Shown: positions 40,473-47,420, counted from the first letter of the stretch. The stretch: DNA of 64,000 bases from Verrucomicrobiia bacterium (GCA_963664225.1 OY760937.1:2944001-3008000), one strand, 5' to 3'. Notes: a model not told the origin generated them from the letters alone. Program-made: numbers and translations.

Positions 40473-40736
40473 AGACATTGCTTTCGATCGCATTTCATTT
40501 ACGGGCTTGTTTCTGGCGATCAATTTAAGGGGTTCGCCGCGGTTTGCGACAAAAAAGGAGGCGGGGAAAAAAGTCCCGTCCTGAAACAGGTTGTCACAGA
40601 TGAGACAATAAACGGTGTCAGAAGGGTGGGAATAAGGTCCAGTGATTCGTTTAACCCGAAATCCGAAATACGAATGGTCAAGATGATGCAATGCTTTGAG
40701 GCAGCCATGATTTGCAATCGGCGAGGGTGTATTAAA

Positions 40737-42268
40737 CCCGAACTCCGAGATAGAAAAAGAGGTCGCAATGCGCAACCTTCTGAGGCAATAGGGTTTGATG
40801 CTAAACAAGCCCGCTTCAGACTCGCACAAAACGACCCCAGTCGAAATTAGCGCTCTTTTCGGCCAAGCCAAGCTCTATCTGGATGAGACTCCCAAGGCCA
40901 TAACCCCCTTCGGCGGTCTGGCTTCATTCATAACCTTTTTGGGTCAGATCGGCTATGCGCAGGCGGTGCAGCGGTGCTTGCCGTTTGCCGCGCCCACTTC
41001 ACCTAATGCCATTCCTCTAGCCCATACGCTGACCAGTTTTATCGTATCTGTGGTGGCGGGAGCACGCCGCTTTGCCCACTGTCAGTGGCTGCGTGCCGAT
41101 CATGTTCTGCACGCCATGCTGGGGATGGAACGTTTCCCGGGCGATGACACCATCCGCAACTTCTTCCTGCACTTTGGCCAGGGCCACATCGAAGCGTTCT
41201 GGCGACCGCTCTGGCGATGGCTGCTCAATCTGCTGGCCTGCCCCAAGGCAGGCTTCTCGTTGGATCTGGATTCGACCGTGTTCTGCCGGGAGGGTTCGCA
41301 GGAGGGGGCTGCCAAGGGGTACAATCCACGCCGCAAGGGGCGCAAGAGCCATCATCCGCTCCTGGCGGTGCTGGCCGAAGCGCCGTTTATCCTGCATGGA
41401 TGGTTGCGCAGCGGCAACACCGGAGCCGCGCGCGGGGTGGTGCCGTTTTTGCAGGAGGCATTGGCCCTGTTGCCCGAGGGAACGTGGATTCGGTGCGTGC
41501 GTGCCGACAGCGGGTTCTTCGATGAGGCGTTAGTGACGTTTTTGGAAATGCGCAAATTAACCTACATTGTGGTGGCGCGCATGACCTCCACGATCAAATA
41601 CCATTGCGTGGGAATCCAGAACTGGAAAGCCATCGATGAAAATCATGCCGTGGGGGAGTTTAGAGCCCAACTCTTTGGCTGGTCCACTGCCCGGCGATTC
41701 GTGGTGCTGCGGGAGCGGATCAGGGAAGACAAGGAGGCTCTGGGTCGCAAGCTCATTGATGTGCCCGGTTACACCTTTCGAGTGTGCGTCACCAACCGAA
41801 GTGAAGGCGCGCTGGAACTGTGGAGGGACTACAACGGAAGGGCCACCATCGAGCAGCGGATCGAGGAGCTGAAGAATGATCTGGCTGCCAACGGTTTTTG
41901 CCTGAAATCGTTTTTCGCCACCGAGTCGGCGTTTCTGGCGGTGCTCTTCACATTCAACCTGCTGAGTCTTTACCAGCATCAGACCACTCCAACCCAGCCA
42001 TACCGCCAGCCAGGAACATTGCGGACGACGGTTTTTCTGGCGGGAGCCCTCTTGGGAACGATGGGGCGTGATGTGGTGGTGAGGCTCTCGGCGGCCTGGG
42101 GTGGACTGGCTAAACACAAGCCGTTGATAGAAACCACGTTGAACTGGTTGAAAAGCGCGTCGCCGAAGTTGGTGCCACCGGAAGCCCGGCAAGCTTTCGG
42201 AGGGGGCGGAATATGACCGGAGGGGTTAGCGGTTCCCTAAAAAAACCGACCTAACTTCGGAGTTCGGG
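40737..42268 (+). mobile_element. IS1380-family insertion sequence
   Basis: 12-bp perfect TIR CCCGAACTCCGA; TSD TTAAA (40732-40736; the right copy is 42269 + 44245-44248, split by the intron). Confidence 0.88.
40798..42216 (+). CDS. IS1380-family DDE transposase
   Basis: TPFGGL, LDLDST, GYNP...SHHPLL, LRSGN, RADSGF, YNGRATIEQRIEELK. Confidence 0.92.
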   Translation: MLNKPASDSHKTTPVEISALFGQAKLYLDETPKAITPFGGLASFITFLGQIGYAQAVQRCLPFAAPTSPNAIPLAHTLTSFIVSVVAGARRFAHCQWLRADHVLHAMLGMERFPGDDTIRNFFLHFGQGHIEAFWRPLWRWLLNLLACPKAGFSLDLDSTVFCREGSQEGAAKGYNPRRKGRKSHHPLLAVLAEAPFILHGWLRSGNTGAARGVVPFLQEALALLPEGTWIRCVRADSGFFDEALVTFLEMRKLTYIVVARMTSTIKYHCVGIQNWKAIDENHAVGEFRAQLFGWSTARRFVVLRERIREDKEALGRKLIDVPGYTFRVCVTNRSEGALELWRDYNGRATIEQRIEELKNDLAANGFCLKSFFATESAFLAVLFTFNLLSLYQHQTTPTQPYRQPGTLRTTVFLAGALLGTMGRDVVVRLSAAWGGLAKHKPLIETTLNWLKSASPKLVPPEARQAFGGGGI

Positions 42269-42269
42269 T

Positions 42270-44244
42270 GTGCGCCAGTGAAATTGGTAGCCTCGTGGGT
42301 GAAAGTCCCGCCGGTCGAATTAGACGGTTCACGACCGAAATGCAGCGTCCGGGACGAGGCCGTGAGGCCGAACCACAAGCGGGACGCTGAAAGAACTGTC
42401 GGGTCGTAACGAAAGTAAACCTCATCAAATGAGCTCCGAAACCGAAATAACCGGTAAGCCGAGCCGCTACCCGAACGGCGAAGGCAGAAACGCGGCGTCA
42501 TCAAATCGTCAAATGGGCGCTGTTGATTCCGGCGGAGTCAGCGAGGGCGACACGACAGGAAGGGAAACCAAGGTAAGCTGGGAGATCTCTGGAGGCGGGG
42601 CGATAAAGCCTCAACCGCCGGTGCAAGGAGGAACACCCTCCGAGGCCGCACGGGCAGCCAGAGAAGTCGGAGTCTTCCATAGTAGCGAAGAAGCTGGGGC
42701 GACCAAAACCCCGGCGGAGCCAAGGGAAGGCACTTGGATCGAAGCGAATCAAAACAGCGAGGGACAGGGAGATGGCCTTGAGGGAGTGGAAACACTTTTT
42801 CAACGGATAACAACCCCGATAAAAGTTCAAAAGCTGCAGCGAGCGCTATATTGCAAAGCCAAGGCTGAGCCGAAGTATCGGTTTTACAGCCTCTACGGAG
42901 AACTGCTGCGGAAGGACGTGCTGGAAACGGCAATGGCCTCCGTGGCGCACAACAATGGCGCGGCTGGGATCGACGGGCAGACATGCGACGTCTATCTTGC
43001 CAGCGACGAAGCCTGGGACCAATGGCGGAACCAACTGCTGGAGGAGTTACGCACGAAGAAGTATCGGCCAAGCCCGGTGAAGCGTGTGTATATACCAAAA
43101 GGAGACGGGAAGCTGCGACCCCTGGGCATCCCGACAGTGAAAGACCGGGTGGTGCAGACAGCGGTGGTGATTGTATTGCTGCCGATTCTGGAAGCCGATA
43201 GTCATCCGAACAGTTACGCCTATCATCCCAAACGCAATGCCCACCAAGCAATGGAGGCGATCAAGAAGGCTACGCTGACAGGACGCGTCGAAGTTATAGA
43301 CGCGGACTTAAGCGGGTATTTTGACAGCATTCCCCACAGGCGTTTGTTGCGCATAGTGGCCAAGCGGGTCAGCGATGGAACAATTCTCAAGCTGATCGCA
43401 GGATGGCTGCGCGCGCCCGTGAATGAACCGCAAAGCGACACAGGGAAAGGCGGGACAAAGGGGGGGCAAGGTCAGAATCGACGGGGGACTCCGCAAGGCG
43501 GGGTTGTATCGCCGATTTTAGCCAATGCATACCTCAACCAGTTGGATTGGGAAGTCAACGAACGCTGCGAACTCAAACCCGTGATGGTGAGATACGCGGA
43601 TGATTTCGTGATACTCGGACAGCCGGGGCAGGGACGGGAACTGATGGAACGACTGGAACGATGGCTGAAGCAACGCGAGTTAGTGCTCAACGAGAAGAAG
43701 ACCCGCTTGGTGGACCTCCGCCAGGATGGCATCAAATTCTTGGGATTCGCGCTAACAATGCGACAGGGGAAGGGGAAATGGAAATATCCGCATGTGGAAC
43801 CCCATCCCAAGAGCCAGAAGAAGTTTCGAGACGGGATTCGGGAGAAACTCAACCGAAGCACGCTATGGCGTGATATCGGAGAGGTGATTCCCGAGCTCAA
43901 CAAGAAACTCAAAGGTTGGAAGGGTTACTTTCACTACGGGAACAGCACCAAGGTGATGGGCCAGATGAACGAATACGTCAGCAGCAAGTTACAACGATGG
44001 TTGTGGCGCAAACACGGATGTAGTCGGGCGCAATGGTCCACATACCCCAAGGAGGATCTCTATGAGCGTTATGGTTTATACCAAATGCCGGAATATGCGG
44101 CATGGAAACGATGACGTCGAAGCGATGCAACGTATGATCCCCGGAGAGCCGGATGCGGGAAAACCGCCTGTCCGGTTCGATGAGGGGCGAAATGCGACGG
44201 TCATTGGCCACGGCCATTCAATCCGTCCATTTCGCCTACTCTAC
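42270..44244 (+). mobile_element. Group II intron (IIB-like, EBS1 + EBS2)
   Basis: 5' GTGCG at 42270; domain V 44146-44178 with AGC triad; domain VI with bulged A ending CTCTAC at 44244; removal restores the IS TSD. Confidence 0.92.
42786..44114 (+). CDS. ltrA: Group II intron reverse transcriptase/maturase, no endonuclease domain
   Basis: RPLGIPTVKDR, DADLSGYFDSI, GTPQGGVVSP, YADD, X domain GWKGYF; start uncertain (GTG 42786 chosen, since the longer ORF runs through ribozyme domains). Confidence 0.92.
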   Translation: METLFQRITTPIKVQKLQRALYCKAKAEPKYRFYSLYGELLRKDVLETAMASVAHNNGAAGIDGQTCDVYLASDEAWDQWRNQLLEELRTKKYRPSPVKRVYIPKGDGKLRPLGIPTVKDRVVQTAVVIVLLPILEADSHPNSYAYHPKRNAHQAMEAIKKATLTGRVEVIDADLSGYFDSIPHRRLLRIVAKRVSDGTILKLIAGWLRAPVNEPQSDTGKGGTKGGQGQNRRGTPQGGVVSPILANAYLNQLDWEVNERCELKPVMVRYADDFVILGQPGQGRELMERLERWLKQRELVLNEKKTRLVDLRQDGIKFLGFALTMRQGKGKWKYPHVEPHPKSQKKFRDGIREKLNRSTLWRDIGEVIPELNKKLKGWKGYFHYGNSTKVMGQMNEYVSSKLQRWLWRKHGCSRAQWSTYPKEDLYERYGLYQMPEYAAWKR

Positions 44245-44491
44245 TAAATCAATACTCCACAGCCGGTTTCAAACCATGGATGGCCAAATGATTGCGTCAG
44301 ATGGGCCGTTCCTATTTCGGATTTCGGGTTTAAAGCGGCTGCGGTGAGGGAGCTGGAAGAGGGCGAAATGTCCTTTGATGCGATGTGGCGCAAGAAAGCG
44401 TTGAGGTGCTTGCGCACGGCCACCATGGGGAGCGCAGTCAATTTGCGAGGGCGCATTCGTTCTTGAATGCGTCCTTTTGCATAATGCCGTG

Positions 44492-46058: not shown

Positions 46059-47420
46059 TCAGCGGGCCAGTTGCTTTTCCAGGTAATTGACTGCCTGGCG
46101 CACGCTTTCATCCACTTCCATGCGATCTTTGACCAGCTTGCAGGCGTGCAGCACCGTCCCGTGATCGCGGCCACCGAACGCCTCGCCGATCGCACTCAGC
46201 GAATTTTCGGTCATTTGCCGGGAGAGAAACATGGCGATTTGACGGGGAAACGCGATGTTTTCGGGCCTGCGTTTGCTGACCATGTCGGTCATGCGAATAT
46301 CGAAATGCTCGGCCACCCGTTTTTGGATGATGGTGATGTTGATGGTAAAGCGCCCTTCCTCGTGAAGTAATTCCCGCAGAAGTTCTTCCGCCAGTTCGAG
46401 CGTCGGTTTCTTATTCGTCAACGTGATGTACGAGGTCAGGCGGATCAGGGCGCCCTCGAGGCGACGGATATTCGTGCGAATCCGGTCCGCGATAAAATGA
46501 ATGACTTCGCTCGGCAAATGAACGCCGATCATGGCCTCTTTTTTCAGGAGAATGGCCACGCGGGTCTCGACATCCGGCGGCTGGAGATCGGCCACCAGAC
46601 CCCATTCGAGGCGGGACATGAGCCGCTGCTCCAGGTTCTGCATCTCGGCCGGAGGACGGTCGCAGGTGAGCACGATTTGCTTGTGGCTCTCGTGCAAGGC
46701 GTTGAACGTATGGAAAAACTCCTCCTGAATGCGTTCCTTGCCCGCGAGGAATTGAATGTCATCGATCAACAGCAGGTCGGTCTGGCGGTATTTCTTGCGG
46801 AACTTGACCAACTGGCTGTTTTGAATGGCGTCGATGTATTCGTTGGTGAATTTCTCGGAGGACAAATAGGCGACGCGCGCGCCCTTTTTCTGGCTTAGCA
46901 GTTGCTGGCCAATGGCATGGAGCAGATGCGTTTTTCCCAGACCCACACCGGCATACAAGAAAAGCGGGTTATAGGATTTGCCGGGAGATTGTGCCACGGC
47001 CATGGCCGCCGCATGGGAGAAACTGTTGGTGCTGCCCACGACAAACGTGTCAAAAGTGTATTTGGGATTGAATCCCAGGTCTGCCGGGGAGCTGTAATCC
47101 AGCGTTGCACCGCCGCTTTTGGCCTTTTTGGGCTGAACCTCGGGTGCGGGCAATGAAGCCGCTGGAGCGGTCGCCGCAATGTGGAAATCAACCTTGATCT
47201 GTTGGCCGGATTCGTGCGAAAGGACGTTCTGGAGCAAATCCAGATAGTTGTCCTTGAGCCAGACCTCGCAAAAATCGTTGGCCACTTCCAGAGTGACGAC
47301 GTCGGCGACCTGGTTGACGGCTCGCAGTGGGGCAAACCACAGATTATAAAGATCAGTGTTTAGCATGGTGCGCAGGCGCTCTTGCGCCTTCCCCCAAATG
47401 CCTTCAACTGATGTTTGCAT
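46059..47420 (-). CDS. dnaA: Chromosomal replication initiator DnaA
   Basis: NPKYTFDTFV, YNPLFLY.GVGLGKTHL, LLIDDIQF, QEEFFHTFN, FGGRDHGTV. Confidence 0.97.
   Translation of the reverse strand: MQTSVEGIWGKAQERLRTMLNTDLYNLWFAPLRAVNQVADVVTLEVANDFCEVWLKDNYLDLLQNVLSHESGQQIKVDFHIAATAPAASLPAPEVQPKKAKSGGATLDYSSPADLGFNPKYTFDTFVVGSTNSFSHAAAMAVAQSPGKSYNPLFLYAGVGLGKTHLLHAIGQQLLSQKKGARVAYLSSEKFTNEYIDAIQNSQLVKFRKKYRQTDLLLIDDIQFLAGKERIQEEFFHTFNALHESHKQIVLTCDRPPAEMQNLEQRLMSRLEWGLVADLQPPDVETRVAILLKKEAMIGVHLPSEVIHFIADRIRTNIRRLEGALIRLTSYITLTNKKPTLELAEELLRELLHEEGRFTINITIIQKRVAEHFDIRMTDMVSKRRPENIAFPRQIAMFLSRQMTENSLSAIGEAFGGRDHGTVLHACKLVKDRMEVDESVRQAVNYLEKQLAR

Follow-up and report, generated by a model that had tools for sequence, protein, structure and literature searches.

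What leads a group II intron to lie directly beside the end of a transposon, and is such a position chosen or accidental? The question is raised by a 64,000-nucleotide stretch of a Verrucomicrobiia bacterium genome (GCA_963664225.1, OY760937.1:2944001-3008000), referred to here as the window, in which positions are counted from the first letter of the stretch. In this window, a 162-bp MITE (miniature inverted-repeat transposable element; 40655-44328) has been hit at an internal TTAAA by a 1532-bp insertion sequence (IS) of the IS1380 family (40737-42268), and the nest thus formed contains a group II intron located one base outside the terminal inverted repeat (TIR) of the IS, inside the target-site duplication (TSD). 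An initial annotation, made from the window alone, had proposed that the exon-binding sites (EBS) of the intron are programmed against the TIR. The results are best explained by a presumably active, endonuclease-less class E intron that retrohomes by RNA-DNA pairing into the TIR/TSD junction of an IS1380-family element or MITE, a reading to which we assign a probability of about 0.8.

The genome consists of one contig of 5.78 Mb, and it was searched on both strands. It contains 19 full copies of the intron with 0 differences over 1975 nt, and in all 19 the 5' exon ends in TCGGA(T/G)TTCGGGT. Thirteen copies lie at MITE ends, with both ends of the element used, four at IS ends (3 left, 1 right) and two at other sites, one with its partner arm some 1.5 kb upstream and one, at 2.065 Mb, for which 2.5 kb of flank contain no such arm. 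The heptamer TTCGGGT, which faces EBS1, occurs at 602 sites on the two strands; the TIR motif is found upstream in 51 of these, including all 19 that are occupied, and none of the remaining 551 carries the intron. Because 213 of these unoccupied sites also have a T at position +1, which faces EBS3 (127 of them on the strand used by the intron, see below), the specificity extends beyond EBS1 and EBS3. A full-length copy was found in none of 30 related genomes, a negative that does not establish absence in the same-genus assembly (G001), which is 93% complete and in 230 contigs.

The 3' exons begin with TAAA (10 copies) or TTAA (9 copies) and then diverge, such that the TSD is split by the intron after its first T, as T/TAAA or T/TTAA. 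The same 5-bp TSD (TTAAA or TTTAA) was recovered across the intron in 15 of the 16 properly paired occupied elements, after two rows in which an outer MITE end had been wrongly joined to an inner IS end were set aside. An intact duplication split by the intron implies that the intron arrived after transposition and was not carried by the element. Furthermore, since the TSD supplies both the T at −1 and the T at +1, transposition renews the target sites. These observations support a specialization of the intron in which the ends of the IS1380-family element and of the MITE serve as its targets.

The second regularity concerns the strand. No element carries two introns, and the copies lie on the plus strand at 0.045-0.95 Mb, on the minus strand at 1.66-2.19 Mb and again on the plus strand at 2.99-5.61 Mb. 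With the boundaries placed at 1.4 and 2.6 Mb, element ends with a T at +1 are divided into 19 occupied and 7 empty on the used strand and 0 occupied and 24 empty on the other (Fisher p = 2.3e-8), that is, 31 element ends without an intron. A natural control is provided by a second MITE-IS composite, inverted and located at 0.828 Mb, in which the intron sits on the left IS end, whereas the window copy sits on the right one. A positive GC skew extends from 3.7 Mb across the end and start of the record as far as 1.3 Mb, with a change of sign at about 1.3-1.5 Mb; for the copies in the regions of clear skew, the sense strand is the G-rich strand in 12 of 12. The sole dnaA match lies at 2,990,590-2,991,069 (window 46590-47069, minus strand), 2.3 kb to the right of the nest. 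These independent markers agree in part with the strand switches, and taken together they suggest that the used strand is the template of lagging-strand synthesis. The densest DnaA-box spot (4 boxes in 600 bp) is located at 2.8925 Mb and is only suggestive. The cumulative GC skew never returns to zero.

The features of the nest are as follows.

40650-40654, no strand: left copy of the MITE target duplication, TTTAA; the same 5-mer is present at 44329-44333.
40655-40731, no strand: left part of the MITE, beginning with the TIR CCCGAAATCCGAAAT (sequence and survey of element ends).
40732-40736, no strand: left copy of the IS target duplication, TTAAA, within the MITE (sequence and TSD table).
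40737-42268, plus strand: IS1380-family IS, 1532 bp, with the TIR CCCGAACTCCGA (TIR pairs; five copies in the genome).
40795-42216, plus strand: transposase open reading frame (ORF), 473 aa (NCBIfam NF033539, IS1380 family, 227.2 bits, cut-off 180; Pfam DDE_Tnp_1_4).
42256-42260, plus strand: revised intron-binding site 2 (IBS2), TTCGG, exon −14 to −10; 5 pairs with the EBS2 loop here, 8-9 at MITE ends.
42263-42269, plus strand: IBS1, TTCGGGT, the last six TIR bases and T42269, the first base of the split TSD (sequence, covariation and TSD table).
42270-44244, plus strand: group II intron, 1975 nt, putative class E (IIE) (Rfam; one of 19 identical copies).
42433-42438, plus strand: GCUCCG, the 5' side of the helix at the base of domain Id; its partner is CGGAGU at 42533-42538 (Rfam consensus and RNAalifold).
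42442-42450, plus strand: unpaired loop CCGAAAUAA, the probable EBS2, an exact complement of TTATTTCGG at exon −10 to −18 of the MITE.
42469-42475, plus strand: EBS1, ACCCGAA, in a hairpin loop (Rfam alignment, RNAalifold and covariation).
42540, plus strand: EBS3, a bulged A pairing with the first base of the 3' exon, T44245 (comparison of the column among introns).
42786-44114, plus strand: intron-encoded reverse transcriptase (RT)/maturase without an endonuclease domain (Pfam RVT_1 and GIIM only; TIGR04416; YADD).
44146-44178, plus strand: domain V, 33 nt, with the AGC triad and the 5-nt loop GAAAA (sequence and Rfam alignment).
44245-44248, plus strand: IBS3 (T44245) and the remainder of the split TSD, TAAA (sequence and TSD table).
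44249-44328, no strand: right-hand portion of the MITE, whose end forms an unoccupied target site (sequence and survey of element ends).
44329-44333, no strand: right copy of the MITE target duplication, TTTAA (sequence and TSD table).

The IS1380 family is characterized by TSDs of 4-5 bp and CC ends. The host element belongs to this family by its NF033539 match, its TIR and its 5-bp TSD. The last base of the IS TIR is G42268, and T42269 together with TAAA at 44245-44248 forms the right copy of the IS TSD.

Much of the initial annotation is borne out by these data. The strings that it quoted (GTGCG, TTCGGGT, TTCGGAG at 42256-42262, ACCCGAA in a hairpin and CTCCGAA) are all present where it placed them; T42269 is, as it proposed, the first TSD base just beyond the right TIR of the IS, given the left copy at 40732-40736; and its proposals that an endonuclease-less intron specialises on IS1380-type ends, lands just outside the element with the TIR intact and finds new sites created by each transposition agree with the genome-wide counts given above. 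The start of the intron at 42270 likewise stands; its last base is 44244, and 44245-44248 is exon. The other three ends of the nest were correctly identified as empty candidate sites, with −1 bases at 40654 and 40736 (minus strand) and 44329 (plus strand). What was overlooked is the strict strand rule: two of these three ends are explained because they lie on the unused strand, and the third, 44329, is on the used strand and remains unoccupied like six others there. A joint of 40732 to 44245 found in assembled contigs was rejected as an empty version of this locus, being uninterrupted MITE sequence that is present elsewhere in the genome.

The composite of MITE and IS was found twice, in opposite orientations, at 828002-831676 (TSD TTGAG) and at 40655-44328 of the window (TSD TTTAA), which may reflect either transposition of an IS-bearing MITE as a unit or two independent IS insertions into the same internal TTAAA. 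One MITE copy, at 264554-266580, spans 2027 bp instead of 162, that is, it contains an insert of about 1.87 kb, and its left flank, TCACA, differs from its right TSD. Among the contigs of two organisms, A and B, the IS of organism B lies in a different flank at low contig depth and the intron contig is deep in both; the IS load may differ between strains, contig depth not being equal to copy number. A promoter scan of 40600-44400 gave 2 sites compared to 1.7 expected.

The assignment to group II is straightforward. The intron begins with GUGCG at 42270, in accord with the GUGYG consensus; domain I matches Rfam RF02005 (54.9 bits, cut-off 49, 42302-42547) and domains V and VI match RF00029 (49.3 bits, cut-off 40, 44144-44244), with the AGC catalytic triad at 44147-44149; and the ORF, in domain IV, encodes an RT and a maturase (X) domain. 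The only Pfam domains in the ORF are RVT_1 (1e-34) and GIIM (7e-14), the latter ending at residue 423 of the 448 scanned; the product also matches TIGR04416 (357 bits, cut-off 300) and contains a YADD motif. The frame is open from 42429, and the GTG at 42786 is a guessed start. Without the 1329-nt ORF, the 1975-nt intron leaves a ribozyme of 646 nt, and the domain V loop is GAAAA (44159-44163).

Based on the Rfam domain I match, ribozyme size, domain V loop and pairwise RT identity, the intron was filed under bacterial class E (IIE), which remains an assignment from sequence features. The traits given for IIE introns are a small ribozyme (450-700 nt without the ORF), a 5-nt domain V loop and no endonuclease (En) domain (PMC3753933), the 5-nt loop being a trait of IIE and IIF introns (PMC3753933). 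The Sinorhizobium plasmid pRmeGR4b offers a direct comparison: it contains two RT loci, a partial one that matches RF02005 at 145 bits and has 45% RT identity to the intron studied here, and a full-length one of the RmInt1 type (L188) that matches RF01999 and has 35% identity. The plasmid is reported to carry one RmInt1 and the class E intron S.me.I4 (PMC5894124), and we therefore take the partial locus to be a disrupted S.me.I4. Class D (RmInt1 and RmInt2) was rejected given that the RmInt1-type locus matches RF01999 and not RF02005 and has the lower RT identity. A tblastn search gave no Sinorhizobium plasmid hit at E <= 1e-76 and does not separate the classes. Class C (IIC), which the initial annotation had argued against, was rejected as well, on the grounds of a 7-bp covarying EBS1 and of occupied sites without a local hairpin.

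The genome contains 33 matches to the domain V/VI model, 32 of them above the cut-off; 19 belong to the present intron, and the remainder represent at least 4 other families by score, in which some copies break the strand rule. The genome also contains a second family of the RF02005 type, with four near-identical copies (L020-L027; 1676.5-1678.5, 2329.5-2331.5, 5161.3-5163.4 and 5604.1-5606.1 kb), in which identity among copies begins at GGAAAGCGCC with no GUGYG there, so that the 5' boundary is uncertain, and the flanks have in common only a short TTTGAG-like motif. Because this family lies in unrelated sites, not every class E-type intron of the genome sits at MITE ends.

The pairing between intron and exon was assessed among relatives obtained from two collection scans (the best 80 of 181 and the best 80 of 564 matches). 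Thirteen introns had a near full-length alignment of domain I; three were dropped, L029 because its contig begins at the intron and lacks the 5' exon, and L106 and L108 because they are head-to-tail copies, leaving 10. Also left out were L033, L109 and L111, which have no domain I match, and L116 and L117 (57% identity, incomplete domain I); distant relatives (40-43% RT identity, mostly Bradyrhizobium) were excluded from the counts because their domain I belongs to a different family, RF02003. The head-to-tail arrangement is found in the metagenome contigs of L106 and L108, in which another copy, ending exactly at the insertion point, supplies the 5' exon although EBS1 does not match that sequence, and at L051 and L057 on the chromosome of Bradyrhizobium genosp. 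P, with three domain I matches 1926 nt apart at L051; these may be tandem arrays or circle-derived DNA.

In the Rfam alignment and in the RNAalifold structure alike, ACCCGAA occupies the terminal loop of a hairpin with the stem GCCG (42463-66)/CGGC (42476-79). In the 10 relatives, the complementarity of this loop to the last 7 exon bases is perfect in 7, includes one G-U pair in 1 and one mismatch in 2; altogether, 98% of the cells are paired and both sides have changed in 5 of the 7 pairs, which confirms the EBS1 loop assignment. At the column of A42540, bulged in the basal Id helix, an A is found with a 3' exon T, a U in L032 (exon A) and a C in L106 (next base G), and pairing holds in 10 of the 11 introns for which the next base is known. 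Accordingly, we take A42540 as EBS3.

The principal alternative to recognition by base pairing is that the intron recognizes, in the manner of class C, a hairpin into which the inverted repeats fold when the DNA is single-stranded, with EBS1 only fine-tuning the site. The surroundings of the intron lend this idea some appeal: the targets in its own genome, where the MITE is 162 bp long, and those of several relatives are located in palindromic elements, and the closest solved RT structures are those of IIC introns (7uim, 6ar1), by a small margin that does not discriminate between classes. The exons and EBS1 sequences of the relatives differ from those of the present intron, and many of these exons consist of a palindromic-repeat arm. 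For L110 and L107 the insertion site is the end of an element, about 155 and 197 bp long, respectively, whose inverted arms are imperfect, and for L031 it is the end of a 75-bp palindrome; in each of the three, a significant partner arm reaches the insertion site; L032 is borderline, and in four other relatives the flank is too short for a search for the partner arm. In the genome of L031 (G031; loci L229-L260), of which the assembly breaks many times within the intron, 16 of 16 recovered 5' junctions follow ...ATCCGTGG, the end of an arm of heptamer repeats.

Several observations are nevertheless hard to reconcile with recognition of a hairpin. Four of the 19 copies lie at the ends of the 1532-bp IS, the arms of which are 1.5 kb apart, and occupancy on the used strand is 4 of 5 for IS ends against 13 of 19 for MITE ends. 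The copy at 2.065 Mb, without a partner arm, and the one with its arm about 1.5 kb off point in the same direction, as do L030 and L115, for which no partner arm was found in 486 and 271 nt of upstream sequence, respectively. In addition, IBS1 is located within the arm, so that a hairpin would mask it, and EBS1 comprises 7 nt, fully covarying, compared to the 3-4 bp of IIC introns (PMC7923331). We therefore consider hairpin recognition unlikely.

The G031 junctions amount to a second replicate. Among the 3' exons, of which 16 were recovered, three conserved families were distinguished, with 5, 6 and 5 members; the left flanks are matched exactly, as reverse complements, by two of the families and only partly by the third, which suggests that the intron there occupies the interior of a longer palindrome rather than the tip. 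The repeats themselves contain three ATCCGTG-type heptamers and conserved outer arms, form at least 3 subfamilies; a similarity between these outer arms and the L110 and L107 exons (GTGGTT..AA.CGGCGG) hints at one repeat superfamily common to several hosts. What the targets have in common is thus an inverted repeat present in many copies, and insertion exactly at the junction of TIR and TSD is peculiar to the genome studied here.

The initial annotation identified EBS2 with CUCCGAA (42434-42440), which together with EBS1 would form 14 contiguous pairs on the IS end. This heptamer is an exact 7/7 complement to the right IS end of the window and matches 6/7 at the other end types, but both the Rfam consensus and the RNAalifold structure place 42434-42438, which make up five of the seven bases, in a helix with 42533-42537. 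This helix is paired in 100% of cells in 14 of 14 rows, with a U-A (in the present intron and L112) to C-G exchange, and is kept also in the distant Bradyrhizobium-type introns. Nor does the heptamer covary with the exons: cognate combinations have a mean of 2.55 pairs compared to 2.43 for non-cognate ones, 48% of the cells are paired, and 0 of 7 pairs have changed on both sides. The match is an expected by-product of a helix with the consensus GCYYCG-AAA meeting a TIR that contains TTCGG twice. An EBS2 at this position is therefore improbable, and the 14 contiguous pairs fall with it, because the second heptamer is not in the EBS2 position. Two of the checks that the initial annotation had called for, a survey of homologue exons and a fold of domain I, hence give a split outcome: EBS1 covaries, in relatives inserted into other repeat arms, and lies in a loop, whereas CUCCGAA does not covary and lies mostly in a helix.

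A better candidate is the loop CCGAAAUAA at 42442-42450, inside the 12 unpaired bases that directly follow the basal Id helix. It can form 9 and 8 pairs with the two MITE ends, and 5 and 4 with the right and left IS ends, respectively. Among 11 introns, 37 of 44 cells are paired in register 0, in which loop base 1 faces exon −10, compared to at most 25 in eight shifted registers, and permutation of the exons among introns reached the observed value in 1 of 20000 trials; the first loop position shows the variants C-G, A-U and U-G. This loop is, judging from the comparison of sequences, probably the true EBS2.

The weakest alternative, that the intron has no independent homing and is carried by transposition of the MITE or IS or spread by recombination between repeats, is very improbable: intron and element are always adjacent and the composite occurs twice, but no TIR follows the 3' end of the intron, the TSD flanks only the element and has the intron inserted within it, 31 element ends lack an intron, the two composites bear the intron on different IS ends, and the strand rule has no basis in DDE transposition.

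Retrohoming into the TIR/TSD junction can be outlined as follows. EBS1 would read the last six TIR bases and the first T of the duplication, EBS3 the next T, and the loop at 42442-42450 would probably act as EBS2, reading from exon −10 onwards over 4 to 9 pairs. Given the preference of the transposase for TTAAA/TTTAA, each new insertion of the IS or MITE would give two sites, one per strand, of which only the one on the lagging-strand template would be used, with the nascent lagging strand presumably priming cDNA synthesis. The host element would suffer no damage because the TIR stays whole. Such a choice of site would spare the host transposon and would be renewed at each transposition.

A number of points weigh against retrohoming as outlined here or limit how far it can be read. 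The IIE introns examined in vitro spliced by hydrolysis only (PMC3753933), a mode that does not account for a form capable of reverse splicing. All natural sites derive from one TIR family, so that the minimal target cannot be read from them. With regard to the strand rule, the boundaries at 1.4 and 2.6 Mb were picked after inspection of the data; GC skew is flat from 1.8 to 3.6 Mb; a DnaA-box scan revealed no clear cluster beside dnaA; the window copy, 4 kb from dnaA, is on the fitting side only if oriC lies to the left of the copy; and the implied replichores, of about 1.6 and 4.2 Mb, are very unequal. As for EBS2, the permutation test ignores kinship among what are related sequences, 6 of the 10 relatives show little or no pairing of the loop (0 to 4 pairs), and occupancy does not rise with the number of pairs (4 of 5 sites with 4 bp, 5 of 8 with 8 bp and 8 of 11 with 9 bp).

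The behaviour of the relatives raises a broader possibility, for and against which we consider the chances to be about even, namely that this class E clade (RT at least 69% identical) is specialized, as a hyperparasite, on palindromic repeats of transposon origin and lives in this way in several bacterial phyla. Retargeting might then occur through changes in EBS1, the EBS2 loop and EBS3 that match a new repeat family; the target preference of the transposase might be exploited to fix the −1 and +1 bases; and the two-strand symmetry of inverted repeats might guarantee a site on the lagging-strand template. If so, the orientation of the intron would record the direction of replication at each locus.

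Comparison with known systems places the intron close to RmInt2 of S. meliloti GR4, of which there are seven copies, identical to one another and each situated in an inverted repeat of ISRm17 (PMC4615759, PMC5894124). Both introns lack an endonuclease, form identical multi-copy insertions in association with IS inverted repeats and use both repeats; in the genome studied here, the corresponding observations are 19 of 19 copies at TIR-type ends, with IS and MITE ends both used. The authors of the RmInt2 study noted that the repeats double the number of sites and ensure one on the lagging-strand template (PMC4615759), a bias that has been demonstrated experimentally for RmInt1 and RmInt2 (PMC4615759), and found four EBS2/IBS2 pairs to suffice (PMC4615759). 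Because homing of RmInt2 into the ISRm17 repeats has already been published, the intron described here is a clear natural example of a known strategy and not a new principle. The two differ in class (D for RmInt2, E here), in position, RmInt2 sitting within the repeat and the present intron one base outside it, in the target duplication, with the TIR intact (a difference that the exact RmInt2 positions in Fig. S1 of PMC4615759 may narrow), and in copy number and targets, with 7 copies of RmInt2 compared to 19 here, 13 of them at MITE ends. RmInt1 in ISRm2011-2 is likewise endonuclease-less, has a multi-copy IS as its host and relies on priming at the replication fork (PMC4615759, PMC5894124); unlike the present intron, it is of class D and targets the inside of the transposase gene, with one site per IS (PMC4615759, PMC5894124).

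With IIC introns at terminators and attC sites, the present intron has in common the lack of an endonuclease, a small ribozyme and a location beside inverted repeats (PMC4424553, PMC7923331). In contrast to the 3-4 bp EBS1, missing EBS2 and stem-loop recognition described for IIC (PMC4424553, PMC7923331), it has a covarying 7-bp EBS1 and another domain I family, and uses sites where no local hairpin can form. A literature search, which covered few subscription journals, turned up no published group II intron located at MITE ends or at the junction of a TIR with a TSD.

Also among the closest known systems are the IIE introns Cl.be.I2 and S.me.I4, which have the same Rfam domain I model as the present intron, a similarly small ribozyme (about 646 nt without the ORF here) and a 5-nt domain V loop (PMC3753933), no En domain, and EBS1 and EBS2 in two loops of domain Id (PMC3753933, PMC5894124). 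They differ in that the excerpts of PMC3753933 and PMC5894124 name neither a target preference nor a strand bias for them. The EBS2 of IIE introns was found to be dispensable for self-splicing and its role was left open (PMC3753933); homing is a likely job for it. Because IIE ribozymes are small, one with a defined natural target of 14-19 bp could be of interest to builders of gene-targeting introns. In this genome, where GC skew is uninformative over a third of the length, intron orientations provide, as a by-product, a map of the replichores. Taken together, the 19 identical copies, a single target family and an exceptionless choice of strand constitute an unusually clean natural record of retrohoming, which extends the strategy of RmInt2 to class E and differs from the published cases in its class, its location beyond the TIR, its use of MITE ends, the size and completeness of its strand pattern and the signs of clade-wide behaviour.

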